From Defluviitaleaceae bacterium (GTDB taxonomy: Bacteria; Bacillota; Clostridia; Lachnospirales; WQUN01), in contig WQVV01000001.1 in NCBI GenBank assembly GCA_009785665.1, positions 1-39,661 of the forward strand: a stretch of 39,661 bases of DNA, in the 5' to 3' direction. The notes below the pieces were generated by a model that made no database searches, was not told the DNA's origin, and saw only the letters and a list, made by a program, of their open reading frames with translations. Within the stretch, counting starts at the first letter, position 1, and each line of letters opens with the position of its first letter. Made by a program: the position numbers and the translations under genes. Positions 4,896 to 39,661 of this stretch are shown here, piece after piece.

Positions 4896-5938
4896 ACAAT
4901 TTTGACTCTTTCGACTCTTTCGACTCTTTTGACAAACTAGAACAGCGTATTCACGATACGCTCACCGAAATAGAAGTAGACACCCAAGGATTTAAGGAGC
5001 GATTCAGCATGAACAACATGGATAAAAAACAAAAAAAACCATATCGCAGATTTGCAATGGCGGCGGCGGCACTTTTGGTGTTTGTGGCAATATCGGCAAC
5101 AGCATACGCCGCAGGCGGTGGGCTAGAGCAATTTCTATCGCGATTCAACCCAGCGTTTGGCGACTTGGCAGTTCAGCCATTAGAAGCCGTATACGCAGAA
5201 GACCAAGGCATTCGCTTTGAGGTAATCGGCGCACAGCAAATAGGCAGTTTCATTCTTATGTACATGACCATGCAGGATATGACAGGCGAAAACCGCCTAA
5301 ACCGTGACACATGGCCAGACTTTGAAGTATTTACAGATGGCAACCCAGTAGGCGGAGCAGGAAGCACCCGCAGGTTGCACTTCGATAGCAATGAAAATCG
5401 CATATACTTTGAAAAGCTAATCACAGGAGAACTGGGCATTCCCCGCGCCGAAGTTTTGGAAATAGGGGCAACGTCGGTTTTGTACACAGGATTCGGGCTT
5501 GACGTATCTCGTCCTCATCAGCCAACAGCAACTATAACAGAGGAAATCCAAACCGCAGAACCAACACCACAAGCAGGGCAAATGATGCATCATATACGCG
5601 GCGAATGGCGAATATCGCTTAACCTAGGCGAAGACATGCACACTGTACTAACATGGACAGATTTGCAGGTAGGAGATTTTTATATTGATTACATGTCCCT
5701 AACCCCACTAGGGCTTAGATTTGCGGGACACGGATATAATTTCTTACCATACGTTGACCGTCCCACCGTAGAAATTGAATTAGAAAACCGCCGCCGCAAC
5801 CTAAGATTTAGAGGACGTTCAGGGGGATTGGGTTACGATTCATTCGAGTTCACCTTCTTCGCCGAGCGCGCCCCCATTGACGTAGATGCTGTAACAGCCG
5901 TAATCATTGACGGTGTGAGAATTACTCCACTCCCCTAA
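4892..5938 (+). CDS. putative anti-sigma factor: single-pass membrane protein translationally coupled to the ECF sigma gene
   Basis: A GTGA start/stop overlap links it to the sigma gene. It has a cytoplasmic N-terminus, one TM helix (FAMAAAALLVFVAISATAYAA) and a ~270-aa extracytoplasmic domain. This arrangement is typical of Firmicutes sigma/anti-sigma pairs. Confidence 0.6.
   Translation: MNNFDSFDSFDSFDKLEQRIHDTLTEIEVDTQGFKERFSMNNMDKKQKKPYRRFAMAAAALLVFVAISATAYAAGGGLEQFLSRFNPAFGDLAVQPLEAVYAEDQGIRFEVIGAQQIGSFILMYMTMQDMTGENRLNRDTWPDFEVFTDGNPVGGAGSTRRLHFDSNENRIYFEKLITGELGIPRAEVLEIGATSVLYTGFGLDVSRPHQPTATITEEIQTAEPTPQAGQMMHHIRGEWRISLNLGEDMHTVLTWTDLQVGDFYIDYMSLTPLGLRFAGHGYNFLPYVDRPTVEIELENRRRNLRFRGRSGGLGYDSFEFTFFAERAPIDVDAVTAVIIDGVRITPLP
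4901..4933 (+). repeat. 9-bp tandem repeat (GACTCTTTC x3 plus a partial unit) encoding FDSFDSFDSFD
   Basis: Direct reading gives units at 4904-4912, 4913-4921 and 4922-4930, then GAC. Confidence 0.9.
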
Positions 5939-10481: not shown

Positions 10482-10976
10482 CTACGCGCTTAACTTCTTC
10501 TTAGTTCGTTCAACCAAACCGCCCGCTGACATTATTTCTTGCATGAACTCTGGGAATGGTTCGGCTTTGTATGTCTCGTTTGTGCTTAGGTTGGTTATTG
10601 TGCCTGATGTGAAGTCGATTTCTACTTGGTCGCCTGCGTTTATTGCCTTTGCGGCTTGCGGGCATTCCAGTATGGGAAGCCCAATGTTGATTGCATTGCG
10701 ATAGAAAATACGTGCGAAAGTTTCGGCAATTACGCAGGAAATCCCAGATGCTTTGATTGCAATTGGCGCATGTTCACGAGACGAACCGCAACCGAAATTT
10801 TTGTTGGCAACCATGATGTCCCCTTGCTTTACGCGTTGTGGGAAGGTTGCGTCAATGTCTTCCATGCAGTGGGACGCGAGACTTGCGGGGTTTGAATCGT
10901 TAAGATACCGCGCTGGGATAATAACATCTGTGTCCACATTGTCGCCATATTTAAAAACAGAACCTTTAGCTTTCAT
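10482..10976 (-). CDS. leuD: 3-isopropylmalate dehydratase small subunit
   Basis: [17 protein letters not shown] and [10 protein letters not shown] motifs. I preferred ATG 10976 (AGGAGG at 6 nt) over TTG 10979. Confidence 0.9.
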
Positions 10977-11010
10977 CAAAATCCTCCTAAAGTTATACTT
11001 TTTTATTACC

Positions 11011-11090
11011 TAGGAAACTGCTTATGGCTTCGAGACGTATGTGTTAGCAGCCAATGCAGGTCGTCGGCGAAATGCGGCTATGCCGCCGCC
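11011..11090 (+). repeat. Repeat family A, copy 1 (leuD/orf178 intergenic, overlapping the orf178 stop)
   Basis: Sequence is TAGGAAACTGCTTATGGCTTCGAGACGTATGTGTTAGCAGCCAATGCAGGTCGTCGGCGAAATGCGGCTATGCCGCCGCC. Confidence 0.85.
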
Positions 11091-11614
11091 ATGATTAGAA
11101 TAATAGTCGCGATAGCCAGAACCGTAATAACACTAAAGCAACCACTTTTCGCGGGTATCCACTGGGCTTTTTCCCCAGGTCTTGCGCCGCGAAGTTGATT
11201 CATTCCTAATTTTTCAACATCGCCGTCGTCGTAATTCATTATTAAGGGCTGTTGGCTTGATAACTTACCCTTGAAAAAGCCGCCTCTTAGATGCCAGTTT
11301 CCCTCAAATGCGAAGGTGTCAAACGCTTCTTGTAATGTCACAACATGCTCTTTTTTCACTACGTCAGTCTCGCCGTCCAAAAATAATGCTTGCACATGAT
11401 GTTCATGAATTTCGCCAATGTTGGCGGGGTAGTAATATCCATCATGCGGCCAACGAGCAAAAACTATATCATTTGGCATATCCTTCGCGCCCAAGGACAA
11501 ATTCACTTCTTGATGCAATTTTTTTGAAGCCCCGCAATATACACAAGTAGCAATATTAGAACCGTGAGTAACTTCAAGATTTGCGCCGCATCGTTCACAT
11601 TGTAAGATGGTCAA
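11078..11614 (-). CDS. hypothetical protein: N-terminal zinc ribbon, two Tudor-like segments, C-terminal TM anchor
   Basis: CERCG...CVYCG forms a zinc ribbon. ARWPHDGYYYPANIGEI...ALFLDGETDVV is Tudor/Agenet-like. The hydrophobic tail is FSVITVLAIATIILIMAAA. TTG start after AGGAG; the RBS overlaps the leuC stop. Confidence 0.5.
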   Translation of the reverse strand: MTILQCERCGANLEVTHGSNIATCVYCGASKKLHQEVNLSLGAKDMPNDIVFARWPHDGYYYPANIGEIHEHHVQALFLDGETDVVKKEHVVTLQEAFDTFAFEGNWHLRGGFFKGKLSSQQPLIMNYDDGDVEKLGMNQLRGARPGEKAQWIPAKSGCFSVITVLAIATIILIMAAA

Positions 11615-11625
11615 TTAAAACACTC

Positions 11626-12891
11626 CTAAATTTTATCGGGGTCTGTGATGTAGCCTGTGAGTGCCGAAGCCGCCGCAACCGCTGGACTAGACAGGTAAAC
11701 TTCGGATTCGGGATGCCCCATACGCCCTACGAAGTTTCGATTGGTGGTAGCAAGAGCGCGTTCGCCCTTAGCCAAAATTCCCATATGCCCGCCAAGACAA
11801 GGCCCGCATGTAGCAGGACTAACAACCGCCCCAGCTTTTATGAAATCTTGCATAAGCCCTTCTTCAATCATTTGAAGGGAAATATTCTGTGTGCCTGGGA
11901 AAATAAGCACACGTAAATTTTTCGCAACCCTGCGCCCACGCAGAATTGACGCGGCAATTCGCATATCTTCCATACGTCCGTTTGTGCAACTTCCTATTAC
12001 AACTTGGTCAAGTTTTACTTTGCCCACTTCTGGGTCGTCAATGGTTTTTGTGTTTTCTGGCAAATGCGGGAAAGCTACCGTTGGACGAAGAGTAGCAAGG
12101 TCGATTGTGTATACCGCTTCGTATTCTGCGTCTGCGTCTGCTGTGTATTCCACGCCCTGTCTTGATGCGTGAGCGGCAATATATTCGCGGGTTTTTTCGT
12201 CTACTGGGAAAATCCCGTTTTTCGCGCCAGCTTCGATAGCCATATTCGCAATGGAAAAACGGTCGTCCATGGAAAGATACTGCAAGCCATCACCCGAATA
12301 CTCCATAGACTTATAAAGCGCGCCGTCCACGCCTATCATACCAATGATATGCAAAATAATATCCTTGCCCGAAACCCATTTTGCAGGCTTGCCAACCAAC
12401 TCAAACTTGAGCGCAGGCGGAACTTTAAACCAAGTCCCACCAATAGCCATAGCGCAGGCCATATCGGTGCTACCAACACCCGTGGAAAACGCACCAAGCG
12501 CGCCATAAGTGCAAGTATGGCTATCCGCGCCGATAATAGCATCACCAGCCACAGCCAAACCTTTTTCGGGAATCAAACAATGCTCGATTCCCATTTCGCC
12601 TACTTCAAAGTAATTTTCAACTTCGTATTTCAGCGCGAACTCACGAACCTGCTTGCAATGCTCCGCCGAAAGAATATCCTTGTTAGGCGTAAAGTGGTCG
12701 GGAACAATAGCAATCTTCGACTTATCGAAAACTTTATCAACCCCAATTTTCTCAAACTCCTTGATTGCAACAGGTGTTGTAACATCATTTCCAAGCACCA
12801 AATCAAGTTTGGCTTCAATCAATTGCCCCGCCGTAACACTAGGCAAGCCCGCATGTGCGGCAAGAATCTTTTGGGTCATAGTCATACCCAT
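11626..12891 (-). CDS. leuC: 3-isopropylmalate dehydratase large subunit
   Basis: Aconitase-family motifs [18 protein letters not shown] and CGPCLG. I preferred ATG 12891 (AAAGGGG at 8 nt) over GTG 12900. Confidence 0.92.
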
Positions 12892-12933
12892 AAGCGACAC
12901 CCCTTTTGAAATTTTATCATCGTAACATTAATA

Positions 12934-12942
12934 ATTATATCA
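12934..12942 (-). promoter_or_regulatory. extended -10 element TGATATAAT upstream of leuC
   Basis: The minus strand reads TGATATAAT about 40 nt upstream of the leuC start. No good -35 is present. Confidence 0.45.
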
Positions 12943-12956
12943 TACTTTTTCCTATA

Positions 12957-13030
12957 AAACAGTGACATATCAGCCCCGCAACAATCCTGCAAATTTGCAC
13001 TATTTTCGTGAGGCTGATATGTCACTGTTT
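12957..13030. repeat. 19-bp perfect inverted repeat with a 36-nt loop
   Basis: The arms are AAACAGTGACATATCAGCC (12957-12975) and GGCTGATATGTCACTGTTT (13012-13030). The loop contains the 12-nt palindrome TGCAAATTTGCA (12988-12999). Confidence 0.9.
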
Positions 13031-13053
13031 AAGCGGAAAAAGTATCAAATGTT

Positions 13054-13113
13054 AAAAAAAATACCACCTTTCTCATATTTAAGCGTGTAAAATCGCTTAA
13101 TGAGAATAGGTGG
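13054..13113 (-). terminator. rho-independent terminator of the paralog/ABC-2 operon
   Basis: An imperfect ~20-bp stem (13064-13085 / 13094-13113) is followed on the minus strand by a T8 run (13054-13061). Confidence 0.7.
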
Positions 13114-13186
13114 CAGCGGCACAGCCGCATTTCGCCGTCAACCTGCATTGGTTGCTAACACATACGTCTCGAAGCCGTAAGCAGAA
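13112..13186 (-). repeat. Repeat family A, copy 2 (3' UTR of the ABC-2 permease gene)
   Basis: The reverse complement reads TTCTGCTTACGGCTTCGAGACGTATGTGTTAGCAACCAATGCAGGTTGACGGCGAAATGCGGCTGTGCCGCTGCC. Confidence 0.85.
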
Positions 13187-13206
13187 TAAAAAAGTGGCAA
13201 TACGCT

Positions 13207-13965
13207 CTAGTATTCTTTACGGTCGAAGATTAAACTTCCTGCTGTGAAAAATACAATACCATATCCGCCAACGATTGCGAGCATGTGAAGGATTCGCGAA
13301 GCATTGGGAAGTACACCAATCCAAAGACGATACCAGCCCAAGTACGACGTAAACAGCATATCGAATAGGGACGGGAATAGAAACGGCAAAACATTAAGCG
13401 TGGCGTAGATTACGATTAGCAGAAGCATAGTCAAAGTGCTGCTTTTGCCAAAAAGCGCGACCAATGCGGCGAAGGTCGCCAGTACCGCCAGCGGAAAAAG
13501 CGTAATTACATAAGCAACTAGCGCGTTAAAAATTCCACTAAATCCGATGCCGCTACCTGTTGCTAAATTAACTAATGTGCTTAGTACAAAAATGCATCCC
13601 AGATAAACTGCGGCATAGGAAACAATTGCAAGCAGTTTTGCGGTGTAAAGTTTCCAGCGTTCTACTGGACGGCAAATCATTGCTTTCATTGTGCTATCGG
13701 AAGATTCTGCTGTAATTAAATCTGCCGCGCCCATGAATACCAGCAACGGGATAATCACCTGCGAAAAAAGCGGCAAAACACCTATTGGCGAAGGTGTTAT
13801 GTTAAACGCGAATCCGCTTAAATGCCCCAAAAGCCCCGAAGCCACTGCCCCTGCACTCACAAACAAAACACAAATAATAGCCCCGATAATTAGAAAGACT
13901 ATGTACTTTTTTCGCAAAAGTAATTTGTCTGTCTCGTTGTGATACGCTGCTTTTAATGCCGTCAT
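13207..13965 (-). CDS. ABC-2 family transporter permease
   Basis: Six hydrophobic segments. ATGA overlap with the upstream ATPase gene. Confidence 0.75.
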   Translation of the reverse strand: MTALKAAYHNETDKLLLRKKYIVFLIIGAIICVLFVSAGAVASGLLGHLSGFAFNITPSPIGVLPLFSQVIIPLLVFMGAADLITAESSDSTMKAMICRPVERWKLYTAKLLAIVSYAAVYLGCIFVLSTLVNLATGSGIGFSGIFNALVAYVITLFPLAVLATFAALVALFGKSSTLTMLLLIVIYATLNVLPFLFPSLFDMLFTSYLGWYRLWIGVLPNASRILHMLAIVGGYGIVFFTAGSLIFDRKEY

Positions 13966-14699: not shown

Positions 14700-15734
14700 T
14701 CACCGTCCAGCCCTTGTGTCGCGAATGCTATCCACGTCAATATAGCCGTTTTCGTCAAGCGAGAAGAATACTGACATATTTCTGCGTCCAAAGTTTTCAT
14801 ACATAAAATCTCGCATGAAAACGTCCGTCAAGTTGGGGATAGGGCTTTGCGGATTACTTGTGCCAACCTCCGAAATATAGATGCCCATTTCCAAATCAAC
14901 TGCGTGAGTATGTCCCAACATGTTCACAATATCGGCTTCAAACCTAAACCAAAAGTAAGTGAGATTTCCCGCAGAATCCACAACCGCTTCAATGGAAACG
15001 CGGTTAATATCCATGCTACGAAGGGGAATATCCAAAACCGTATGATGCTCCTGCACCACAAAAGTTCTTCCCCAACCTGTATAGTTGCTCTCAATCTGTA
15101 TATCAATCAATAACCGTAGAAGCTCTGGAATCTGATGCCCAGCAATCGTGCCACTTATGCGCTGTGTGCCGTCGCTTTGCGAGGTCATACTCAAGTGATT
15201 ACGCATATCGCCTACCAACATGTCAATTCCAAGTTCAAACAGACGCATGGCGTTAGAATCCCGTTGAATATTCTCCAACTCGCTAAATCCCATAGTTGTA
15301 GCTGATGCTAACGTAGGCTGGAGGAAGAAATTATTGGGCCCATACGTCTCGGCGCGATACACAATTCGCCCGTCGGTGATGTCTGTTGTTTCGTGATTAC
15401 GACTGGTGCGTACTCTTAACCCATGTGTTTCATAGTTCATGTTCATGAATGTGCTTGCTATACCTGTTGCGTCTACTTCATATATATATTGCTGATAAAA
15501 CCTAGCGTTGCTATTAACGCTTTCATGGATTGTTGCTTGTTCCATAACTTCGCCGTCGATACGTATAATACCTTCGCCGTTTATGGTGAAATCATCGTAG
15601 AACAACGCGTCAAATACCGCGCTTTTTAAAACCTCATAAGGTGAACCATTTATTGCCGATACCATCAACACGCCCGACAGCATCATTCCTGCAACTACGA
15701 GGCATATTACCCGTATTGATAACTTCTTTTTCAT
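14700..15734 (-). CDS. signal-anchored extracytoplasmic protein, paralog 1 of 4 (uncharacterised family)
   Basis: N-terminus MKKKLSIRVICLVVAGMMLSGVLMVSAINGSPYEVLK. Shared motifs are MTSQSDGTQRISG, GHQIPE and VGTSNPQSPIPNL. RBS GAGGAGGG. Confidence 0.8.
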   Translation of the reverse strand: MKKKLSIRVICLVVAGMMLSGVLMVSAINGSPYEVLKSAVFDALFYDDFTINGEGIIRIDGEVMEQATIHESVNSNARFYQQYIYEVDATGIASTFMNMNYETHGLRVRTSRNHETTDITDGRIVYRAETYGPNNFFLQPTLASATTMGFSELENIQRDSNAMRLFELGIDMLVGDMRNHLSMTSQSDGTQRISGTIAGHQIPELLRLLIDIQIESNYTGWGRTFVVQEHHTVLDIPLRSMDINRVSIEAVVDSAGNLTYFWFRFEADIVNMLGHTHAVDLEMGIYISEVGTSNPQSPIPNLTDVFMRDFMYENFGRRNMSVFFSLDENGYIDVDSIRDTRAGR

Positions 15735-15758
15735 TTTTGCCCTCCTCGGTTAGTTTAA

Positions 15759-16712
15759 TTAAGGTCTTCCAAAAAATGAATGCATTACAATGCTATCCAT
15801 GTCAACATTGCCATAGTCGTCTAGCGTGAATGTCGCGTATGACGCGCTATCCAATCTAAAAACTTCCTCCAGATTAGGAATTGGACTTTGCGGCGCACTT
15901 GTACCTATTTCGGAAAGATGCGTAACAATTTCTACATCAAAGATATTTGTTTCGCCAAAAATATTTGTTACGGCGGCATTTGCCCCAACGCGCAAGTATA
16001 TTAAATAACCAGCGGCATTTATATCCGCATAGCCATAGATGCGGTTGATTGTCACACTCTGCATTGGTACATGAACTGTCGTTTGACCCTCGCGTAATAC
16101 GAACCATTCTGCGCGTGCCGCGTCTTGCTCTACCATTATGTCTATTAGCAATTGCGCCATTTCGGGTAGTTGATTCCCTGTTATTGCTCCGCTTACGCGA
16201 CGCGTTCCGTCGCTTTGGGTTGTCATGCTCATGTGGTGTCGTAAATCGCCAACCACCATGTCCAGCCCCAATTCAATCAATCGCATTTGGTGAGAATCAC
16301 GCTCTGGTATAACATTCCTGTTATTCCCCATTGTGGTTGGGTTAAACTCATTTCGCGTATGCTTATAAATTTGAAATCTTTGTGGGTCGCCAGTATAACG
16401 AGTGTTACTATGCATACGCAGTTCTTCCGTAGAAAACATCATGTGGCTTCGCCCGTCATGATTTTCAAAGATAGACAAGATAGTTGTATCACTGGTGCTG
16501 AAATGTTGCCGCTGGTAGTGATGTATTTCGCCGTTTACACGCACAGTAATCGTTGAGTCAGTTGTAAGATTCTCGTAGAAAAATGCGTCAAACAACGCGT
16601 TTTTCAAAACTTCATACGGTGAACCATTTATTGCCGATACCATCAGCACGCCCGACAGCATCATTCCTGCTACTACAAGGCAAATCACTCGTAGTGATAA
16701 CTTCTTTTTCAT
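15759..16712 (-). CDS. signal-anchored extracytoplasmic protein, paralog 2 of 4
   Basis: N-terminus MKKKLSLRVICLVVAGMMLSGVLMVSAINGSPYEVLK. Motifs MTTQSDGTRRVSG, GNQLPE and IGTSAPQSPIPNL. The RBS TAGGAGGG overlaps the stop of the upstream paralog. Confidence 0.8.
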   Translation of the reverse strand: MKKKLSLRVICLVVAGMMLSGVLMVSAINGSPYEVLKNALFDAFFYENLTTDSTITVRVNGEIHHYQRQHFSTSDTTILSIFENHDGRSHMMFSTEELRMHSNTRYTGDPQRFQIYKHTRNEFNPTTMGNNRNVIPERDSHQMRLIELGLDMVVGDLRHHMSMTTQSDGTRRVSGAITGNQLPEMAQLLIDIMVEQDAARAEWFVLREGQTTVHVPMQSVTINRIYGYADINAAGYLIYLRVGANAAVTNIFGETNIFDVEIVTHLSEIGTSAPQSPIPNLEEVFRLDSASYATFTLDDYGNVDMDSIVMHSFFGRP

Positions 16713-16722
16713 TTACACCCTC

Positions 16723-17781
16723 CTATGATTCAAGATGCATCCCGCAAACTACTGCTAGTATGCTTCGATGTCCAAAAAATCCAATGCTATCCATGTCAAT
16801 ATTGCCGTAGTCGTCCAACATAAACTGGATTGTGCTATACCTTATGCCAAAATTACTGTCCAAAAAATCTGGCGTAAAAGTTTCCAGTAAGTTGGGGATT
16901 GGGTTTTGTGGATTACTTGTGCCAAGTTCTGTAAAATGGAAAATTTGCTCTACATTAATTTCGTGGCTACTGCCAAACATATTAACAACATCAGCATTCA
17001 TGCCCATACGAATATATGTGAGATTTCCTGTAGAATCCACAATAGCCTCTGTATACAGGCGGGTTATTTCCAAACTGCGTATCGGAATATCCACGGGAAT
17101 ATGGTAATCCTGCAACACGAAATTACTTGCCCTTGCGTAATCTGCTTCAACTCTCATATCCACAAGAACACGCCCAATTTCGGGTAGTTGATTCCCCGTG
17201 ATTGCTGCATAGAATTTTCGTGTGCCGTCGCTTTGCGTGGTCATGTTTACGTTGTTTCGCAAATCGCTAACAAGAAGGTCTAACGCGAGTTCCTTAATTC
17301 GCGTTTCGGCAGAATATCTATCGCCGCCCAAATTAAGCGTGTGCGGAATAAAAGCCCGCCCAGCCGTAACAACCCAATGCTGACTATATGGGCTTACACT
17401 TAAACGATACACCGCACGCCCGCAAGGACTAGGCACACATGTCATCAAAGACACTTCGCTTGTGCGAAACGACAGTATTCTGTCATGCCTATGCGTGTAC
17501 GCCACAGACATTCTATTAGGCGAATCCACAAATAAACTACGGTTATTGCCAACACTTTCATGCCGCAAACCATGCGCGACAACTTCGCCATCAAAGCGCA
17601 GAATGAACTCGCTGTCTAGGGTGAAGTTATCGTAAAACATAGCGTCAAACACCACGTTTTTAAAAGCCTCATATGGCGAGCCATTCACCGCCGACACCGC
17701 CAACGCCCCAAACAAGAGCATTCCAGCGATTGCAAGGCATAATACACGAACGGATAGTTTCCGTTTTTTTCCGTCTACCAT
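16723..17781 (-). CDS. signal-anchored extracytoplasmic protein, paralog 3 of 4
   Basis: N-terminus MVDGKKRKLSVRVLCLAIAGMLLFGALAVSAVNGSPYEAFK. Motifs MTTQSDGTRKF, GNQLPE and LGTSNPQNPIPNL. The start overlaps the stop of paralog 4 (ATGGTAG). Confidence 0.75.
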   Translation of the reverse strand: MVDGKKRKLSVRVLCLAIAGMLLFGALAVSAVNGSPYEAFKNVVFDAMFYDNFTLDSEFILRFDGEVVAHGLRHESVGNNRSLFVDSPNRMSVAYTHRHDRILSFRTSEVSLMTCVPSPCGRAVYRLSVSPYSQHWVVTAGRAFIPHTLNLGGDRYSAETRIKELALDLLVSDLRNNVNMTTQSDGTRKFYAAITGNQLPEIGRVLVDMRVEADYARASNFVLQDYHIPVDIPIRSLEITRLYTEAIVDSTGNLTYIRMGMNADVVNMFGSSHEINVEQIFHFTELGTSNPQNPIPNLLETFTPDFLDSNFGIRYSTIQFMLDDYGNIDMDSIGFFGHRSILAVVCGMHLES

Positions 17782-18785
17782 CTCCGTAGTTCGCTTGAAT
17801 AGCGACTTGGGCGAATGCTTTCCATATTAACATTACCATTTTCGTCCGTCACAAAAATCAACGAAGAACCGCGTGCAAGATTAGGAAACATTTCAGCTAC
17901 AAACGCTGGAGTGAATATTTCCTCTAGCCCAGCGATTGGGCTTTGCGGATTACTTGTGCCGATGTCTGTAAATTGCAAACTCATTTCAAATTCAACATTG
18001 TGGAACCTACCAAACATATCCTCAATGGTCACGGTAGCGCGACCGCTTAAATACGTTAGATTGTTGGACGAATCTACATGCGCCGTTCCTTCTAATCGGT
18101 TTATTACTAAACTGCGCATTGGAATATCAAGCACCGCGCTGTTTGGAAGGTCAGCCACATCAGACGCACTCATGTTTTGCCATGGGAAACGATGTGCGCT
18201 ACGTCCGTATTCTTCTTCTATTGCTATGTCAGTCAATAGCTGTATTATTTCGGGCAGTTGATTCCCAGAAATTGCGCCAGTTATGCGGCGTGTGCCGTCG
18301 CTTTGTGTACTCATGCTCATGTGATGCCGTAAATCGCCAATTACCATGTCCATTCCAAGTTCCATTAGGCGCATGTAATTGGAGTTGTGTAAGTCTGCGT
18401 CCATTCCGCTCCATGTGTCACGCTGGAAGCCTCTTGTATTCATGTGTAACCAATACATGTTGTACCCGCTGGAGGTAGTTCTAACATCTCTGCGAACATT
18501 AAATGTATCGTTTGAAAATCTTATGGTGTTCCCAGTAGGTGATATGGCGAAGTGACTGCTGTCGCCGTGGCTTTCATGAATGATTTCATGCTCTACGACT
18601 TCACCATTCACACGCATTATAAATTCCCCGTCTAGGGTAAAGTTGTCATAAAACAATGCGTTAAATCCCGCGTTCTTTAACACCTCATACGGCGAACCAT
18701 TAACCGCCGATACCATCAACGCTCCAGACAACATCAGGCCTGCCACTACCAAACACAACACTCGAATTGATAACTTCTTCTTCAT
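17775..18785 (-). CDS. signal-anchored extracytoplasmic protein, paralog 4 of 4 (first gene of the operon)
   Basis: I trimmed the start to ATG 18785 (GGGGAG at 8 nt), giving MKKKLSIRVLCLVVAGLMLSGALMVSAVNGSPYEVLK. Motifs MSTQSDGTRRITG, GNQLPE and IGTSNPQSPI. Confidence 0.8.
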   Translation of the reverse strand: MKKKLSIRVLCLVVAGLMLSGALMVSAVNGSPYEVLKNAGFNALFYDNFTLDGEFIMRVNGEVVEHEIIHESHGDSSHFAISPTGNTIRFSNDTFNVRRDVRTTSSGYNMYWLHMNTRGFQRDTWSGMDADLHNSNYMRLMELGMDMVIGDLRHHMSMSTQSDGTRRITGAISGNQLPEIIQLLTDIAIEEEYGRSAHRFPWQNMSASDVADLPNSAVLDIPMRSLVINRLEGTAHVDSSNNLTYLSGRATVTIEDMFGRFHNVEFEMSLQFTDIGTSNPQSPIAGLEEIFTPAFVAEMFPNLARGSSLIFVTDENGNVNMESIRPSRYSSELRRW

Positions 18786-19033
18786 AAAAATAACTCCCCT
18801 TCTTTTTGTTAGGAACTGGCAAGTTATTTCTTGACAGTTCCTTAGTTTGCGCATACATATTACACTATTCATCGCGAATATATATTACACTCTTTTAAAT
18901 ATTCCCATTTTTTACAAGCAAAAAACACAGCGCGAGTAGTTGCCCCGTTAAAATTTTTTACAAATTTTCGTAATTTTCGTAAAATCCCCACATAAGTACA
19001 CTGCTCGCAAGAATATCCGCCCCTTTCCATAGA

Positions 19034-26361: not shown

Positions 26362-26634
26362 ATGGATGTATATTTCACCGATATTGCAAATAAGGAACTA
26401 AAAAACTGGCTGAAATCAGACCGTTTAACTGCCAAGAAAATTTACGACCTTATCAGCGATATTAAATCACATGGAATGTTAGGCGGTCGCGGCAAACCCG
26501 AACAATTAAAGCATTACAAAAATCTGGTGCGATTTTCAAGGCATATTAATAAAGGAGATAGGCTCGTTTATTGTCTGCAAGATGAAAAGGATTTGTTAAT
26601 TATTTCATGCAAAGGGCATTATGACGATAAATAA
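26362..26634 (+). CDS. yoeB: YoeB/Txe-family toxin (mRNA interferase)
   Basis: A 90-aa protein. The segments KKIYDLISDI...GKPEQLKH...SRHINKGDRLVY...ISCKGHY follow the YoeB pattern (GKPEPLKH...RRI...HRLVY...HY). Confidence 0.85.
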   Translation: MDVYFTDIANKELKNWLKSDRLTAKKIYDLISDIKSHGMLGGRGKPEQLKHYKNLVRFSRHINKGDRLVYCLQDEKDLLIISCKGHYDDK

Positions 26635-29160: not shown

Positions 29161-29919
29161 CTAAACAATATGACCATAAAAATATTTCTTTCCACGCTCC
29201 CATTCCATTTTAGAAAGTGATTCTGTGTAGTCTAGGATTTCTTTTACTACTTGGTTTGTGACTATAGTTTCATATTCCAATGGGCATTTTTTTCCCGACC
29301 AGATTGAAAGCAATGATGGAATTGTATACATTTTAAATGGTTCGTTAAGATACATTGCCGACATTGCACGCTGTTGAATTATCTTGGTCAAATCCCCAGC
29401 AAATGATGGCTTCTGTTCGTAGAAATATGAAGTAGACCGACTGTTTTCAATCCCCAAATAATAATTTCCGATGTCCTCAAATGTTACATCATCACCCAGT
29501 ACTGCGCCTAGTATTTCTGCTAAAGCATCTCGTATCATCGCTTCTACTTGATAGTTTCCAGTCCATTCTTCTAGCAAGACTAGCAAATACGGAACAATTT
29601 CGTAGGATAAAAAATCTGATGCCCTAGCTGTGAATGTTTTAAGCGTGTCTGTAGACGCGTTTAATAAAAAAATAAAATTATCCGAGTCTCGTATGTCTTC
29701 ATGTGTTGCAATTGACGAAAAAATTTCTATACATAATTGCAACACTTCGTCATCTCCCGTGCTGTTCATAAGCTGCACCAACAATGGTTTTAAAGAAAAA
29801 TCACCAAGCTTGAATAAATCCACCAAGTTGAAAATCAACTCTTCTTCGTTAATGGATTCGTCGAAAATTAATTTTTTTATCTCTGTGGGATTTACTTTTT
29901 CTACTTCTCCATACCACAT
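29161..29919 (-). CDS. hypothetical cytoplasmic protein (252 aa), immediately downstream of mutS
   Basis: An ORF with the RBS AGGGTGGA. I recognised no motif. By eye it looks predicted-helical and AT-rich. Confidence 0.5.
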   Translation of the reverse strand: MWYGEVEKVNPTEIKKLIFDESINEEELIFNLVDLFKLGDFSLKPLLVQLMNSTGDDEVLQLCIEIFSSIATHEDIRDSDNFIFLLNASTDTLKTFTARASDFLSYEIVPYLLVLLEEWTGNYQVEAMIRDALAEILGAVLGDDVTFEDIGNYYLGIENSRSTSYFYEQKPSFAGDLTKIIQQRAMSAMYLNEPFKMYTIPSLLSIWSGKKCPLEYETIVTNQVVKEILDYTESLSKMEWERGKKYFYGHIV

Positions 29920-29984: not shown

Positions 29985-32624
29985 CTACAAAAGCTCTTTC
30001 AAGCGGGATAGCGTTAGTAGTGCTTCTAGTGGGGTAATGTCGTTTACATTTATTTCGGATAGGGCTTGGGTTAGCTTTTGCTCTGTTTCGGTTTCTGTTA
30101 CCGTAGCAGAACTGGCTTCGTGATGTACATGCGGGTTTGCGTGAATGCCATCGGCGTTAAAAATATTTAGTAATTTTGTGGCGTGGGATAGTACGTTTTT
30201 TGGTAGGCCTGCTAGGCGTGCTACGTGGATTCCGTAGCTTTGACCTGCTTCGCCGTGGATTAGCTTTCTTAGGAAAACTATGTTTTCGCCTTGTTCTTGG
30301 GCTGTGAAGCAATAGTTTTTTACACCTTCTATTTGACCTTCTAGTTGGGTTAGTTCGTGGTAATGAGTGGCGAATAGCGTTTTTGATTGGGTTTTGTTGG
30401 CTATGTGTTCTAGTACTGCCCATGCTATCGCTAGGCCATCGAAAGTGCTTGTTCCGCGACCTATTTCGTCTAGTAGAACTAGGCTGTCTTTTGTGGCGTT
30501 GTTTAGAATGTTGGCTACTTCGGTCATTTCCACCATGAATGTGCTTTGCCCTGTTGCGAGGTCGTCGGACGCGCCTACTCTGGTGAAGATGCGGTCGGTT
30601 ACGCCTATATCGGCGGATTGGGCTGGCACGAACGAACCTATCTGCGCCATTAGCACAATCAGCGCGACCTGTCGCATGTACGTTGACTTACCTGCCATGT
30701 TAGGCCCTGTTATTATTGCCAAACGGTTGTCTTGACTCATATCGGTGTCGTTTGGCACGAAGGCTTGGGGAGTTAGTTTTTCTATTACTGGGTGGCGACC
30801 TTCTTTTATTGTTATGTTTGTTCCGTTGGTTACGGTTGGTTTTGTGTAGTTGTTTACCTCGGCTGTTTCGGCTAGGGACTGGAACGCGTCCAGTGTTGCC
30901 AGCACTGATGCCGCGAATTGTATGCGTGCCATTTCATCAACTATTTCGCGGCGTAGTGTGTCGAATAACTCGTATTCCAAGGTTATTATTTGCTCGTCCG
31001 CGCCTAGTAGAGTTTCTTCTAGGTTTTTTAGTTCTTCGGTTACGAAGCGTTCGCAGTTTGCCAAGGTTTGGCGACGAATATAGTTGTCTGGGACTTTGGA
31101 TAGATTGGTGGCGGTTACTTCTATATAGTAGCCAAATACGCGGTTATAGCGGATTTTTAGGCTGGTTATTCCTGTTTCTTGCTTCTCGCGGGCTTCCATT
31201 TCTTCCAGATAGCCTTGGGCGTTTTCTTTTATATCGCGCAACTTGTCTAGTTCGGAGTTGATGCCGTCGCGTATCATGCCGCCTTCACGGGCTGTTGCTG
31301 GTGGCGTTTCGGTTATGGTTTTTTCGATTTTTTCATAAATGTCAGCCAAAGTATCGTAGGTGCGGCGAATTTCGCTGTTGGCCTCGCTTTTTGTGTGGGT
31401 TAAAAGGCGTTCTATTGCGGGTAGAAGTTCTATGCTTCCTCGCAGAATTGCCAAGTCGCGGGCAGTGCCGTAACGCGTGGATAGCCGCGCCATTACGCGT
31501 TCAAGGTCGTGTATGCCGTGCAAATACTCGCGGATTTCGGCGCGTTCGATGGGCATTTGCTTCCATTCCGATACTGCATCTAGGCGGCGGTTTATTTCTT
31601 TTGTGTTCATTAACGGAAGGTCTACCCAGCTACGCAGTAGACGCGCTCCCATTGCGGTTTTTGTGCGGTCTAGCACCCATAACAACGAGCCTTTTTTCCC
31701 CCTGTCGTGGGCGGCGGCGGTTAGTTCCAAATTTCGGCGGCTGGAGATGTCTAGTATCATGTGGGTTTGCTGGCTGTATGTTTTTAGCCGCGTTATTTGC
31801 GATAACGCGTTTTTTTGCGTGTCTGATAAGTATTCCAACAACGCCCCTGCCGCTGGGATTTCTGGCGCGTTTTCTACCAGACCAAAGCCTTCTAGGTGCA
31901 TTGTACCAAAATGCTCTGTTAAGCGTTTATGCGCGTTTGATAGATGGAATGTCCATGCTGGAACAGTAGTTGCCTTCACCCCCGTGATGTTTTCAATCAC
32001 GCGGGTTAGCGGGAAATTTTCGGGTAGAACAATCTCGGCTGGGTTTATTCGAGAAAGCTCGTCCAGTAATTTTTGCTCCGACATTGGAAACTGGCTTCGA
32101 GACGTATGCGTAGTTTCAGACGCAGGTTGTCGGCGAGAAGCGGCTGTGCCGCCGCTGTTAGGAATCGCCGTTGCCATAAACAGCCCCGTGGTTATATCCG
32201 CACATGCAAGCGAAAACCCCGCCTTGTCGCTGAAAATTGCCGCGATATAATTATGCCGTCCTTCGTCAAGGAAATTCGCGTCTGTGATTGTACCTGGTGT
32301 TATTACGCGAATTACGTCGCGCTTAACTATTCCCTTCGCTTGCTTCGCGTCCTCCACTTGGTCGCATAACGCGACTCGATAGCCCTTTTCTACAAGCTTT
32401 GCAATATATCCGTCTACCGCGTGTGCTGGTACGCCGCACATTGGCGCACGTTCTGCCTGCCCGCAGTCGCGCCCTGTTAGCGCGATGTCAAGTTCCTTTG
32501 CCGCTATTTTCGCGTCATCAAAAAAAATCTCAAAAAAATCGCCAAGCCGAAACATCAATATTGAATCCTTGTGATTCGCCTTAATGCTAAAATACTGCTC
32601 CATCATTGGGGTCATTTTTGGCAT
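29985..32624 (-). CDS. mutS: DNA mismatch repair protein MutS (carrying a repeat-derived insertion)
   Basis: N-terminus TPMMEQYFSIKANHKDSILMFRLGDFFE, Walker A GPNMAGKST, and DEIGRGTSTFDG. RBS AAGGAG. Confidence 0.95.
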   Translation of the reverse strand: MPKMTPMMEQYFSIKANHKDSILMFRLGDFFEIFFDDAKIAAKELDIALTGRDCGQAERAPMCGVPAHAVDGYIAKLVEKGYRVALCDQVEDAKQAKGIVKRDVIRVITPGTITDANFLDEGRHNYIAAIFSDKAGFSLACADITTGLFMATAIPNSGGTAASRRQPASETTHTSRSQFPMSEQKLLDELSRINPAEIVLPENFPLTRVIENITGVKATTVPAWTFHLSNAHKRLTEHFGTMHLEGFGLVENAPEIPAAGALLEYLSDTQKNALSQITRLKTYSQQTHMILDISSRRNLELTAAAHDRGKKGSLLWVLDRTKTAMGARLLRSWVDLPLMNTKEINRRLDAVSEWKQMPIERAEIREYLHGIHDLERVMARLSTRYGTARDLAILRGSIELLPAIERLLTHTKSEANSEIRRTYDTLADIYEKIEKTITETPPATAREGGMIRDGINSELDKLRDIKENAQGYLEEMEAREKQETGITSLKIRYNRVFGYYIEVTATNLSKVPDNYIRRQTLANCERFVTEELKNLEETLLGADEQIITLEYELFDTLRREIVDEMARIQFAASVLATLDAFQSLAETAEVNNYTKPTVTNGTNITIKEGRHPVIEKLTPQAFVPNDTDMSQDNRLAIITGPNMAGKSTYMRQVALIVLMAQIGSFVPAQSADIGVTDRIFTRVGASDDLATGQSTFMVEMTEVANILNNATKDSLVLLDEIGRGTSTFDGLAIAWAVLEHIANKTQSKTLFATHYHELTQLEGQIEGVKNYCFTAQEQGENIVFLRKLIHGEAGQSYGIHVARLAGLPKNVLSHATKLLNIFNADGIHANPHVHHEASSATVTETETEQKLTQALSEINVNDITPLEALLTLSRLKELL
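32091..32156 (+). repeat. Repeat family A, copy 3, inside the mutS ORF and in frame
   Basis: Sequence is CTGGCTTCGAGACGTATGCGTAGTTTCAGACGCAGGTTGTCGGCGAGAAGCGGCTGTGCCGCCGCT. It is 66 nt and is translated on the minus strand as SGGTAASRRQPASETTHTSRSQ. Confidence 0.85.
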
Positions 32625-36092: not shown

Positions 36093-36785
36093 ATGATAAA
36101 CTATATTTTAAAACGCTCGGCGCGTAAAAGTTTGGGGATTTACATAAAAGGTGGCGAAGTTGAAATTCGCGCCCCATTTCGTGTACCCATGCGCGAGATT
36201 GAAGCCTTTGTTAATTCAAAGACACAGTGGATAAATGAAGTAGTAACAAAACAACAAAAACACGCAGAAGCGGTGGAAGCTTTTCGCTTGAATGGCGATA
36301 GCCTAATTTTACTACGCGGGCAGGAAACACGCGTTGCAGATATTCTGCCGCTTAGGCTTTCTTGGGGGAGAAAGCCTTTGGGTGCTTCCGATTTTTCGGA
36401 TTCGTTGGCGTTGGAGGAATCAGATGCAATTAGGGCTGATTGTGTTAAATTTTATCAACGCACCGCAAAAGTTGTAATTGCAGAACGCGTAGCGTATTTC
36501 TCCGAAAAAATGGGCGTGTCCCCCGCGTCGGTAAAAATCACCAGCGCGAAAACCCGTTGGGGTAGTTGCATATCCAAAAAACGAATCAACTTCTCGTGGC
36601 GGTTGATTATGGCTCATGATGATGTTATTGATTATGTAGTAGTTCACGAACTAGCCCATTTGTTAGAAATGAATCACTCATCACGATTCTGGGCAATAGT
36701 CGCGAAAATTCTGCCCGATTACAAACAGCGACAGGCGCAATTAAAAATTTTGCACAGGCGGATTGTACACGAGGGCTGGAATTGA
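36093..36785 (+). CDS. YgjP-like M48-family metallopeptidase (DUF45)
   Basis: HELAHLLEMNHSSRFW zinc motif near the C-terminus. The N-terminus YILKRSARKSLGIYIKGGEVEIRAP is typical of YgjP. Confidence 0.85.
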   Translation: MINYILKRSARKSLGIYIKGGEVEIRAPFRVPMREIEAFVNSKTQWINEVVTKQQKHAEAVEAFRLNGDSLILLRGQETRVADILPLRLSWGRKPLGASDFSDSLALEESDAIRADCVKFYQRTAKVVIAERVAYFSEKMGVSPASVKITSAKTRWGSCISKKRINFSWRLIMAHDDVIDYVVVHELAHLLEMNHSSRFWAIVAKILPDYKQRQAQLKILHRRIVHEGWN

Positions 36786-36786
36786 G

Positions 36787-36870
36787 GCGGGCGGCACAGC
36801 CGCTTTTCGCCGAGGACATGTATTGGCAATCTAACGTGTACATCTCGAAGCCAGATACAATTTCCTAGCC
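36787..36870 (-). repeat. Repeat family A, copy 5
   Basis: It begins 1-2 nt after the M48 stop. The plus strand reads GCGGGCGGCACAGCCGCTTTTCGCCGAGGACATGTATTGGCAATCTAACGTGTACATCTCGAAGCCAGATACAATTTCCTAGCC. Confidence 0.85.
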
Positions 36871-36880
36871 TACAAAAAAG

Positions 36881-36960
36881 CGACACAGCCGCTTTTCACC
36901 GAGGACATGCATTGGCAATCTAACGTGTGCGTCTCGAAGCCAGATGCCGTTTCCTAGCCT
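36881..36960 (-). repeat. Repeat family A, copy 6 (direct tandem with copy 5, ~93-nt period)
   Basis: The plus strand reads CGACACAGCCGCTTTTCACCGAGGACATGCATTGGCAATCTAACGTGTGCGTCTCGAAGCCAGATGCCGTTTCCTAGCC. Confidence 0.85.
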
Positions 36961-36962
36961 AC

Positions 36963-37001
36963 AAAAAAATCCACATCTATGCGGTAGACGTGGATTTTTT
37001 T
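36963..37001. terminator. bidirectional rho-independent terminator between the convergent M48 peptidase and MCP genes
   Basis: A7 run, then an 11-bp stem ATCCACATCTA / TAGACGTGGAT (one A-C mismatch) with a 5-nt loop, then a T7 run. Confidence 0.75.
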
Positions 37002-37002
37002 G

Positions 37003-37083
37003 CTTAGGAAATTGTATCTGGCTTCGTGACGTATGCGTGGCTTGCAATGCATGTTATCGGCGAAAAGCGGCTGTGCCGCTAGA
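37003..37083 (+). repeat. Repeat family A, copy 7 (inverted relative to copies 5 and 6; abuts the MCP stop codon)
   Basis: Sequence is GCTTAGGAAATTGTATCTGGCTTCGTGACGTATGCGTGGCTTGCAATGCATGTTATCGGCGAAAAGCGGCTGTGCCGCTAG. Confidence 0.85.
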
Positions 37084-39346
37084 CTTTGAAATATGATACC
37101 AACTGCTGTAGTAACTCTGCTTGAGAGGTTAGTTCTTGTGATGCCGCGGCTGTTTCTTCTGATACTGCGGAGTTGTTTTGTACTACTTGGGAAATTTGTT
37201 GCAAGCCCTGACCTACTTGACCTACTGCATCTGCTTGTTCTTTAGATGCTTCGGCAATGCTGTTTATTATTTCCATTACTTCGGTTGCGTTGCTTACTAT
37301 GATGTTTAGTGCTTCTGATGTTGTTTGAGCAATTCCAGAACCTACATCTACCCTTGAAATAGAAGCTAGAATCATTGCCTCTGTTTCTTTTACGGCCTCT
37401 TGGCTTCTGGACGCTAGGGTTCTTACTTCGTCGGCTACTACGCCAAAACCCTTTCCGTGTTCGCCTGCGCGTGCGGCTTCTACCGAAGCGTTTAGAGAAA
37501 GCAAGTTTGTTTGGAACGCAATATCTTGAATTGTCTTGATGATTTTGGAAATATTGTTGGACGATTCTTTAATTTGCGCCATAGCTTCAACCATTTCATT
37601 CATGGCGTTGTTGCCCGCTTGGGCATTGGCGTTGGAGGTATTGGAAAGGGTATTTGCGTTGCTTGCGTTTTCGGCGTTTTGGGAAGTTTGCTGATTTATT
37701 ATATCCACGGAAGCGTTAAGTTCTTCTACGGAGCTTGCCTGTGTTTGCGCGCCTTGCGCTAAATCAATCGCGCTTGTGGATATTTGTTTCGCGCCAGACA
37801 ACACCTGCCCTGATGCCGACGAAATTTCTGCCATAGTTTTTCTCAAGGTGGTTGATATATGATTAACAGCTTCTTTTGTTACGATATACTCCCCTACAAA
37901 ATCCATGTCAATAGTTTTGCGTAGGTCGCCAGACGCGATTTCACCAAGCACATTGTTAATTTCAGCCATATATTTAGACGTGTCTTCGATAAAGTAGTTT
38001 AGGTCATTTTTCATGGATAAGAAATCACCAGCGTAATCACCAGTCACTCGAGCATCAAATAATCCCTTGTTTAATACGCTAAGAACGTCACGTATTTCCA
38101 CAATAGGCACGTCTGTCGCATGACAAATATCATTAAGACCATTTAGAATTTTGTTCCAGTCACCAAGATACTTTGACGCATCAATGTGATACGCCAAGTC
38201 TCCTTTTACTGCCGCCGCGTCAACCATGCCGTTTACTTCGGCAACTACATCTTTCAGATTGTTTGTGCATCTGTTCATTGCCTGCGGCAACGCAGCCCAG
38301 TCACCTACCCAGATTGCATCTTCCAATTTTACATTAAAGTCGCCATCGCTTACATGATTGAGAATATCGCTTATGCTTAATACATCCGTTGAAGTTTGCT
38401 TGAGAATGGTATTAACAAGCCTAACAACTTCTTTGTACGAATTGTTATATTTGCTCTCGTCGATTGTGAATTTCAAATCGCCAACTTCTAAAAATTGGTC
38501 GTGTGCCATGGTTAAATCGTCCATGATGCTCTTGATTACATCTACAAGTTTGATTACATCGGTAGTAAGCATACCCACTTCGTCTTTGCCAATCTTCGCT
38601 CTATTGATGTTTATGTTAAGGTTTCCAGCAGAAACATTGTTTAAAGCGTCAACAGTTCTTTTAATTGGTCTTGTGATTGCACTAGAAATTACAAACGCAA
38701 TAATCACACCAAATGCTATGCCGATAATAGCAACTGCCAGCATTATCCCAGAAGAAATACCAGCAAAAAGTGAAGCCGAAGTAAAAAGCCCGTCTACTGT
38801 TTCCTGTGCGGCATTGGTAAGTGCTATGAAAACATTGTCTATGCCCGCAAGAATTGGGGTTGCTTCTTCTAAAATTTCTGGCAACAACCTATCGGACGCA
38901 CCAGTAGCGACCGCGTAAAGCGGATACACAATAGTGTTGAAATAGTTGTTAAGGTGATTATTCTGCAAGCCGTATGCCGCGTTAATTCCTGCTTCTCGCG
39001 TTTCTTCATCAATGCGTGGGTCGTCGCGTAGGCTTTCGCGATACTTTTCTAAAAGCTCATATATTACCTCTCGGCTTGCCACCACTGATGCATATGCATC
39101 TTCAATAACTTGTGGATGGTCTGCTGATGCCGCGATTAATGCTACATTTGTGCGTAGTCTATGGACTTCAATTTCCGTCTGTAGTAGCAAGTTGTACCTT
39201 GCAGTTGGATGACTTGCGGCATAACGATAATCGCTATTTATTCTGGTGACGGTAACTACGCCATAAATTGCCATAGCAAGCATAATAATTAACAAAATTC
39301 CAAAACCAATTCCTAATTTGCCCGCGACCTTTGTGTTTCTTAACAT
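37079..39346 (-). CDS. methyl-accepting chemotaxis protein
   Basis: N-terminal TM helix, large sensor region, second TM helix/HAMP and the highly conserved signalling hairpin [35 protein letters not shown] chose the start at ATG 39346 (TGGAGGAA at 7 nt). Confidence 0.9.
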
Positions 39347-39548
39347 AATAACATTCCTCCAATATAGGTTACGCATGATAATGGTGTAATACCTTTGGAT
39401 AAAAATAAATTTATGATTTTATTTTTACCCAAAAGGCGACAAATGCGAATGGGAAAATTCCCCGTTCGCATTTGAAAAAGTATAGCCATTCTAAGATTTT
39501 TTCGTTCTCTAGTCAAGTGATAATCTACACCAAAGGTTGCATAAAAAA

Positions 39549-39614
39549 GCGGGCAAAGACCGCCCGCATAGAAAAGCAAAAGCCGATAGCTCACGTTTCG
39601 CTATCGGCTTTTTG
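39549..39614. terminator. two tandem GC-rich hairpins with flanking A/T runs (terminators, probably for a gene beyond the right edge)
   Basis: The first is GCGGGC-N7-GCCCGC (39549-39567), preceded by A6. The second is AAGCCGATAGC-N9-GCTATCGGCTT (39580-39610), followed by TTTTTG. Confidence 0.6.
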
Positions 39615-39661
39615 TTAGAGATATGATAAAATACGAACCATGAAAACAGAGAGAAAATACA

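Follow-up and report, generated by a model that had tools for sequence, protein, structure and literature searches.

Family A, an uncatalogued family of short interspersed repeats of an uncultured termite-gut Defluviitaleaceae bacterium, lies at gene ends and in frame within genes

We analyzed a 39,661-nt stretch of DNA from a Defluviitaleaceae bacterium (GenBank assembly GCA_009785665.1, contig WQVV01000001.1, positions 1 to 39,661; hereafter the window) that carries a dispersed repeat, designated family A. Family A is an uncatalogued family of an uncultured Defluviitaleaceae bacterium of termite guts, and probably represents a lineage-specific set of short, non-coding, non-autonomous interspersed DNA repeats of the class that comprises REP/BIME, SPRITE, MIRU and RPE elements. 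A covariance model identified seven full copies and one partial copy in the window. The seven are those listed in the initial annotation, which was made from the sequence alone; the eighth, a 5'-degenerate copy at 30110-30171, was added here. The conserved ends and variable centre first described for the repeat were also borne out, with seven matches to GGCGAAAAGCGGCTGTGCCGC (up to three mismatches) in the window compared with 0.00 expected, and nine matches to TGGCTTCGAGACG (up to two mismatches) compared with 0.5 expected.

Three family A copies around a shared terminator

Three family A copies are arranged around a bidirectional terminator at 36786-37079, where an M48/YgjP-like peptidase gene (36093-36785, plus strand) converges on a gene for a methyl-accepting chemotaxis protein (MCP; 37079-39376, minus strand). 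The region contains the following features.

36786-36879, plus strand: copy 1 (covariance model, 82.2 bits; repeat finder; end-motif matches)
36880-36968, plus strand: copy 2, head to tail with copy 1 (78.8 bits)
36963-37001, both strands: bidirectional intrinsic terminator (A7, TCCACATCTA...TAGACGTGGA, T7; 10-bp stem)
36995-37079, minus strand: copy 3, inverted (83 bits; repeat finder)

Copy 1 consists of a GC-rich 5' extension (GGCGG, 36786-36790), a core (36791-36852, GCGGCACAGCCGC...CTCGAAGCC) and a tail (AGATACAATTTCCTAGCCTACAAAAAA), and the TGA stop codon of the M48 gene (36783-36785) is followed directly by its GGCGG+GCGGC. Comparison of copies 1 (36791-36879) and 2 (36880-36968) by the repeat finder revealed 91% identity and a period of 89 nt, with both units ending in CCTACAAAAAA. 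In copy 2 the hairpin is weakened (GCGAC), and the A-run of the tail doubles as the A-tract of the terminator. The tail of copy 3 (..TTTCCTAAGCAAAAAAA) extends into the terminator T-tract, and this copy contributes its first G (37079) as the last base of the MCP stop codon TAG (37079-37081 on the minus strand). The terminator is common to the convergent M48 and MCP genes and lies outside the repeat core. The region of ~300 nt folded as a single super-hairpin (-166 kcal/mol, z = -16), a consequence of the opposite orientation of copy 3 to copies 1 and 2. The initial annotation had described the tandem pair, the terminator, the inverted third copy and a super-palindrome, all of which stood; its tandem period of ~93 nt did not.

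Anatomy of the repeat unit

The anatomy of the unit was defined from an alignment of 26 distinct copies (A3). The core measures 60-63 nt (GCGGC-ACA-GCCGC-(A/T)TTTCGCCGA...GTC(T/A)CGAAGCC) and is laid out as an invariant hairpin, GCGGC-A(C/T)A-GCCGC, then (A/T)TTTC(G/A)CCGA, a variable centre of ~25-30 nt and GTC(T/A)CGAAGCC; the ends of the family are GCGGCACAGCCGC... and ...GTCTCGAAGCC. The hairpin was followed by 3-4 U in every case. Many copies continue into a tail of ~26 nt (..TTTCCTAG..AAAAAA) that ends in an A-run and has the consensus (A/G)TGAACAGTTTCCTAG(G)CAWACAAAAAA, and some begin with a GGC/AGC-rich 5' extension (GGCGG, GGCAGCG or GGCGAGCGG). In a short subfamily of ~55 nt (GCGGCACAGCCGCTTTTCGCCGAC...GTCTCGAGCC), only the two end modules are kept and the centre is unrelated. 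Conserved ends together with an exchangeable centre fit a mobilised repeat.

Head-to-tail duplicates were present in the window and in two of the loci retrieved from sequence collections (L033 and L038). The 5' part was lacking from the window copy at 30110-30171 and from the second unit in L013, L033 contained a tail-only fragment, and a 3' truncation was also seen (L036, 123-165). When the first 30 nt of the 89-nt unit were compared with the reverse complement of its last 30 nt, the best ungapped agreement was 9 of 30 positions; terminal inverted repeats are therefore absent, and the sole palindrome in the unit is the internal 13-nt hairpin at one end. No consistent target-site duplication was detected among 37 copies at any boundary offset, the best pairs being identical 4-6-mers in 4-6 copies (A-runs). 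In 36 of 37 copies, GCGGC came directly after a purine (24 with A, 12 with G), and GTAG preceded only ~5 of the 37, on account of TAG stop codons.

Several known element types were ruled out on these features. A strict MITE (miniature inverted-repeat transposable element) is excluded by the lack of terminal inverted repeats and target duplication; size (<300 bp) and copy number fit, and no parent insertion sequence (IS) is visible. A Correia/IS630-style TA target duplication was rejected, with TA at the 5' junction in only 3 of 17 tailed copies, as was a MIRU-like internal open reading frame (ORF), the core length of 60-63 nt varying out of frame. Integron attC sites and DNA uptake sequences were dismissed by inspection: the copies are dispersed among and inside housekeeping genes, form no cassette arrays and share similarity over 60-90 nt. 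The REP/BOX/Correia likeness suggested initially thus holds for the broad class and fails for Correia elements and MITEs in the strict sense.

An asymmetric unit with a hairpin at one end and neither terminal inverted repeats nor target duplication is consistent with a REP/PATE-like single-stranded DNA element moved by a Y1 (HUH) transposase of the RAYT (REP-associated tyrosine transposase) or IS200/IS605 type. Such an enzyme would recognise the terminal hairpin and insert the element 3' of a short purine-rich target; the purine at -1, often within an A-run or T(A/G)A, is in keeping with this. The head-to-tail arrays have exact junctions, as would follow if the A-rich 3' end of the element recreates the target. 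A second multi-copy element (39539-39661, described below) also opens with a GC hairpin after ATAAAAAA and stands immediately behind a family A tail at three loci. GTAG, on the other hand, is not conserved, and we consider a Y1 origin unlikely in view also of the orientation data presented below.

Copies elsewhere in the window

Outside the convergent region, the covariance model identified the following copies.

7025-7092, minus strand: copy inside the U32 peptidase gene (5922-8324, minus strand), sense and in frame (73 bits)
10998-11090, minus strand: copy at the end of orf178 (11078-11614, minus strand; 79.5 bits)
13109-13193, plus strand: antisense copy, flanking genes on the minus strand (75.9 bits)
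30110-30171, minus strand: partial, degenerate copy without the 5' hairpin, in mutS (21 bits, E 0.004)
32089-32156, minus strand: copy inside mutS (29985-32624, minus strand), sense and in frame (70.3 bits)

The stop codon of orf178 (TAG, 11078-11080) is supplied by an ATA-loop variant of the hairpin (GCGGCATAGCC). This copy is operon-internal: the ribosome-binding site and start codon of leuD come after its tail. The antisense copy lies between genes for an ABC-2 permease (13207-13965) and leuC (11626-12900), both on the minus strand, and is 92% complementary to the copy at 10998-11090. These two are the most similar non-tandem copies, and they flank orf178, leuC and the leader in inverted orientation. 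The product of orf178, which is encoded between leuC and leuD (10482-10979), has a zinc-ribbon-like N-terminus, a weak Tudor-like match and a hydrophobic C-terminus.

Orientation and contact with stop codons

Genomic context was examined for 44 model matches, corresponding to ~40 distinct usable family copies. In the window, 7 of 8 copies have GCGGC first when read along the local gene; only the copy at 13109-13193 does not. The bias, which had been noticed for the window, held beyond it: at least 28 copies, read GCGGC-first, shared the sense of the gene beside or around them and one (the 13-kb copy of the window) was clearly antisense, the remaining copies being unscorable next to divergent promoters or contig ends. 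In the convergent gene pairs of the window and, independently, of L046, each gene has its own sense copy beside a shared terminator. Orientation therefore tracks the gene and not the DNA strand.

These data bear directly on the Y1 transposase explanation, under which the bias would follow the replication strand (lagging-strand template) and the link to transcription would be an apparent one, caused by co-orientation of genes with replication. Oppositely oriented copies on convergent genes within 300 nt (window, L046) argue against this, and 28 of 29 copies in sense exceeds a gene-strand bias of 80-85% (P about 0.01-0.05, our own calculation). Cumulative GC skew of the window has a weak minimum near 20 kb (~19-21 kb), with mostly minus-strand genes on both sides and no dnaA or dnaN; the orientation of family A did not flip across it. 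Finally, no Y1 transposase was detected in 340 kb of sequence by tblastn, a weak test, with an IS200-like TnpA query against fragmentary sequence.

The position of the copies relative to stop codons was also constrained, as the initial annotation had noted for the M48, MCP and orf178 genes. In ~20 copies, the stop codon of a long sense ORF lies within -12 to +9 nt of GCGGC, and in 11 of these copies it lies at -1 to +1, typically as TA|GCGGC, with the first G of the element completing TAG. Gaps of 5-12 nt between stop codon and GCGGC usually correspond to the GC-rich extension of the element itself. At the other end, ~10 to >50 nt separate the element from the next ribosome-binding site or terminator, so a lack of space is not the reason for the contact with stop codons.

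One way to account for this contact would be insertion coupled to expression, either by homing in sense to natural stop codons and 3' untranslated regions (UTRs), perhaps tied to the termination of transcription or translation, or through a SINE-like RNA intermediate. Across two subfamilies and several species, the 5' junction falls exactly at natural in-frame stops while 3' spacing is free. Almost every copy is in sense, the element ends 3' in an A-run, and the 5' part is missing from some copies (30110-30171, the second L013 unit and the tail-only fragment in L033). Against this explanation, neither a reverse transcriptase nor similar machinery was seen, an A-run is a usual part of Firmicute terminators and at the present locus is shared with the terminator, copies with 3' truncations exist too (L036), and A-rich target duplications occur in no more than 4-6 of 37 copies. 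We regard expression-coupled insertion as improbable.

A benefit to the host offers another explanation for both orientation and position. The hairpin and U-run after the stop codon could terminate or attenuate transcription or block 3' exonucleases, like a co-opted SPRITE or a REP mRNA stabiliser, perhaps conditionally, with the terminating ribosome covering the hairpin; selection for such a function would account for the distribution. The invariant hairpin, always with its 3-4 U, supports this idea, as do a 5' end that falls within the footprint of the terminating ribosome in about half of the copies, the same arrangement in two subfamilies and different species, and the precedents of SPRITE and BIME (PMC3049150). 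The stem is, however, just 5 bp with a U-run of 3-4 nt, which the terminator scan did not call. An independent canonical terminator comes directly after the A-run in about a third of the copies, mostly at gene ends, and other copies are operon-internal, just upstream of the next ribosome-binding site (10998-11090 between orf178 and leuD; L007, L016 and L019). The hairpin plus 3-4 U is therefore not an efficient terminator, and the 'mini terminator' suggested initially cannot be a strong one. Operon-internal copies also precede essential downstream genes such as leuD, termination would be harmful in mutS and in the U32 peptidase gene, and close relatives manage without the element. A host-beneficial 3'-end module is thus a minor possibility in our assessment.

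Copies inside protein-coding genes

The in-frame intragenic insertion proposed initially was confirmed for MutS and the U32 peptidase, whose homologues lack the corresponding segments. The full mutS copy translates to GGTAASRRQPASETTHTSRSQ in a loop of the connector domain (residues ~157-180), and the closest MutS homologues (76-80% identity) are without this segment. The partial copy (30110-30171) falls, sense and in frame, within the variable C-terminal linker of MutS, though it is read in another frame of the element. In a modest-quality AlphaFold model, both segments took the form of low-confidence coil beside a confident domain II. In the U32 peptidase, the copy encodes a 23-residue segment (residues ~410-433) that is absent in 13 of 13 aligned homologues; a search of 1.84 billion proteins with the 30-aa repeat-encoded segment returned no match, the query being too short to inform. 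Further sense copies lie within ORFs in L013 and L038.

Two MutS relatives, P0008 (L050, 194-2812) and P0022 (L051, 1758-4445), carry different, degenerate, repeat-like inserts in the same connector loop. One of these begins CGCGGCACAG... and contains ...GGGAATA...GTCGCGGGAGAC; the other contains ...CCCGAAGCCGGAAAAAAA. Either this loop is a hotspot for insertion or the inserts are remnants of one old insertion. In L013, an ORF for a SpmA-like protein with a Gate domain (5504-6256, minus strand) runs through two tandem units that add ~50 codons; its end overlaps the start of the next Gate-domain gene as ATGA, which is reminiscent of MIRU.

RNA structure

Folding of single copies revealed no extra stability compared with shuffled sequence (z +0.6 to -1.7), and the invariant 5-bp hairpin was all that RNAalifold retained on each strand. 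A second helix (CGA.GAC/GTC.CG plus ATGC/GCAT) could be drawn explicitly, with 81% of cells paired. There was no covariation in this explicit 15-pair model, which scored 0.102 compared with a shuffle mean of 0.111, and 424 of 500 shuffles scored equal or higher. The inner stem with G-U compensation that had been read from two copies was unsupported across the 26 compared. Only the invariant hairpin is supported as a structure, family A is no proven structured RNA, and since the hairpin alone survived the fold tests, the idea of covariation and with it the hint of a structured function at the RNA level were dropped.

A conserved cis-regulatory or small RNA would have been in line with the conserved ends, the drawable stem and the transcript-sense orientation. 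Besides the results of the fold and covariation tests, the short subfamily replaces the entire centre, copies occur within coding sequences and no Rfam family matches. The structured-RNA explanation is weakly refuted by these data, and we consider it highly improbable. Conserved ends with a replaceable centre fit the recognition sequences of a mobilised repeat better than they fit a folded RNA.

Distribution and host

The MutS encoded in the window is 80% identical to MutS of Defluviitaleaceae bacterium metagenome-assembled genomes (MAGs), and MAGs of this kind come from the guts of higher termites (PMC7024585). A scan of GTDB at one genome per species with a 22-nt pattern revealed a single genome with several matches, the Defluviitaleaceae MAG Co191P1bin4, which carries the short subfamily. 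A metagenome scan yielded at least 36 loci; about two thirds were true family members among the matches listed, and these came almost all from a few JGI series (Ga0123353/55/56, Ga0209755, Ga0131853) in which Defluviitaleaceae MAG contigs are found as well. Altogether, the related copies number more than 40, the ~55-nt subfamily included, and come mostly from termite-gut metagenome contigs and the one Defluviitaleaceae MAG. About 10 of 23 metagenome matches listed were no more than 250 nt from a contig end, in keeping with a multi-copy sequence.

The covariance model built from A3 gave 51 matches in 210 kb of these loci. In contrast, there was no match at E<0.1 in ~100 kb from five relatives, whose loci were picked through MutS (76-80% identity) or U32 (65% identity) homologues. 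With eight copies in the 40-kb window and none at this threshold in the sampled loci of the relatives, the expansion is specific to certain lineages. The family also passed as new in the catalogues consulted: Rfam 15 gave no match for the window as a whole at the gathering threshold; with the cutoff relaxed to E<=10 for 36700-37150, there were only sub-threshold chance matches, nearly all centred on the terminator palindrome. No family A match was present in the plasmid collection, and the motif was not found in the literature searched.

Among viral contigs, there was one true copy, at a contig end (L053). Two other viral matches (L052, 1158-1219, and L054, 3132-3193; 38 bits) lie in high-GC coding sequence with GCGGCACAGCCGCATCTCGCCG and, ~30 nt downstream, ACGTCTCGTAGCC; we judged these to be probably a chance resemblance in a coding region. 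Fourteen further loci (L001-L003, L005, L006, L009, L014, L018, L023-L025, L029, L034 and L040) were rejected as single 22-nt matches in unrelated sequence. The rejected loci of the collection scans were mostly high-GC (Actinomycetes, Acidobacteria and others) and several were coding, with the same chloride-channel-like motif behind the matches in L001, L003 and L040.

Neighbouring repeats and genes

A second repeat family was observed upstream of leuC as a near-perfect palindrome of ~105-114 nt (window 12937-13050), whose arms are 81% complementary and have no spacer. Copies 86-92% identical to it occur in L027, L030, L031, L042 and L045, and 4 of the 6 copies have a family A neighbour no more than 100 nt away, one such neighbour being the antisense copy at 13109-13193 (66 nt).

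The end of the window (39539-39661; also L010, 6447-6587) has the layout ATAAAAAA-GCGGGCAAAGACCGCCCGC-...-AAGCCGATAGCTCACGTTTCGCTATCGGCTT-...-ATG (MKTERKYRYDATS...). It is 99-100% identical to the ends of contigs L026, L031 and L035, where it stands directly after a family A tail. Four different upstream contexts were seen, and all the short-read contigs break inside the element. The sequence probably represents one end of a multi-copy, IS-like element with recent activity, which might have a connection to the movement of family A.

Four tandem paralogous ORFs of 317-365 aa (14700-18872, minus strand) follow an ABC transporter pair and account for the families D1, D2 and D6 of the repeat finder; the two paralogues scanned (14700-15734 and 17775-18872) had no Pfam match. 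The window also contains a YoeB-like toxin gene (26362-26634), for which no antitoxin ORF was called at the 80-aa cutoff of the ORF list, and an Imm47 immunity-protein gene (29161-29919) directly downstream of mutS.

Discussion

We favour an interpretation of family A as a lineage-specific, non-autonomous interspersed repeat, selfish or duplicative in nature and tolerated in protein loops, in spacers of operons and in 3' UTRs. An enzyme or process for which the window has no gene would have multiplied its copies, in part by local duplication head to tail, and the copies that survive would be those between a natural stop codon and a terminator or the next ribosome-binding site, or those in frame in permissive protein loops. 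Past a stop codon, the 5-bp GC hairpin and U-run may act at most as a weak 3'-end block or attenuator, as do REP and SPRITE. The overall distribution could then reflect an insertion preference for a purine or stop-like junction combined with purifying selection.

Several observations weigh against this interpretation. No mobilising enzyme, donor element or pair of filled and empty sites was found, so that mobility is a property that we infer; the window contains no transposase, and the tblastn search of 340 kb described above found no IS200-like one. Terminal inverted repeats (9 of 30) and a consistent target duplication are lacking. A sense hairpin with a U-run inside a gene should, if anything, be selected against, and selection alone therefore does not explain the orientation bias. 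Nor can a shortage of space account for the exact contact with stop codons, given the long 3' spacers. Folding energies were no better than those of shuffled sequence, and any role at the RNA level is putative.

The closest functional counterpart in Firmicutes is SPRITE, for which an enrichment between convergent genes and towards coding-sequence 3' ends has been described (PMC3049150). Both are small, lineage-restricted interspersed repeats of Firmicutes with a terminator-like hairpin and U-rich tract and an enrichment at gene 3' ends, and SPRITE likewise has no known matching IS element or demonstrable target duplication. SPRITE differs in being AT-rich, with an 18-bp duplex and a long U tract, whereas family A has a 5-bp GC hairpin, a second conserved box 45 nt downstream and a separate tail. 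Family A is also GC-richer than its own genome, starts exactly at stop codons, occurs in frame in genes and shares no sequence similarity with SPRITE.

The REP/BIME elements of Enterobacteria and Pseudomonas are likewise short GC-rich hairpin repeats of transcribed extragenic regions after genes. Like family A, they occur singly, in tandem and as inverted pairs, can form super-hairpins, as in REPINs, and have neither terminal inverted repeats nor target duplications. REP elements affect mRNA 3' ends, and some BIMEs are attenuators (PMC3049150). Yet the REP unit is itself a palindrome of 20-40 nt, has a conserved GTAG and occurs in both orientations within clusters, whereas family A is an asymmetric unit of 60-90 nt in a single orientation, with some copies intragenic and no RAYT identified.

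MIRUs are units of 40-100 nt that lie in operon spacers in one transcription orientation and form head-to-tail tandems; they are placed exactly at gene boundaries (PMC12548453). Family A too has sense copies in operon spacers and tandem copies. In contrast to family A, a MIRU has a small ORF coupled by a 4-nt overlap to the downstream start codon. The junction of family A is the upstream stop codon, only L013 shows ATGA-coupled read-through, and taxon and sequence differ.

RPEs are inserted in frame, and QMITE2 lies in 3' UTRs (PMC10969869). As with RPEs, in-frame copies of family A are found in unrelated housekeeping genes, where they add a peptide without destroying the protein; the MutS and U32 segments are translated in conserved genes and absent from orthologues. 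RPEs, however, are palindromes of ~100-150 bp of an alpha-proteobacterium, with nearly half of the copies intra-ORF in 3 of 10 families (PMC10969869), while family A copies lie mostly in 3' UTRs and the unit is no long palindrome.

Small interspersed repeats shape bacterial genomes by breaking short-read assemblies, seeding inversions and duplications and altering mRNA 3' ends, and many metagenome contigs end in or near family A. They can also add peptide segments to essential proteins, for which the mismatch-repair protein MutS is an example. The Defluviitaleaceae of termite guts are an abundant clade with mostly uncultivated members, and the covariance model (R1, or a new one built on the alignment of 26 copies) could help to annotate family A and improve assemblies. 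Family A unites three properties that are usually found in separate families, namely a strict transcript-sense orientation, a 5' end exactly at the stop codon and in-frame insertion. If the contact with stop codons reflects insertion and not survival, this would point to a new targeting mechanism.

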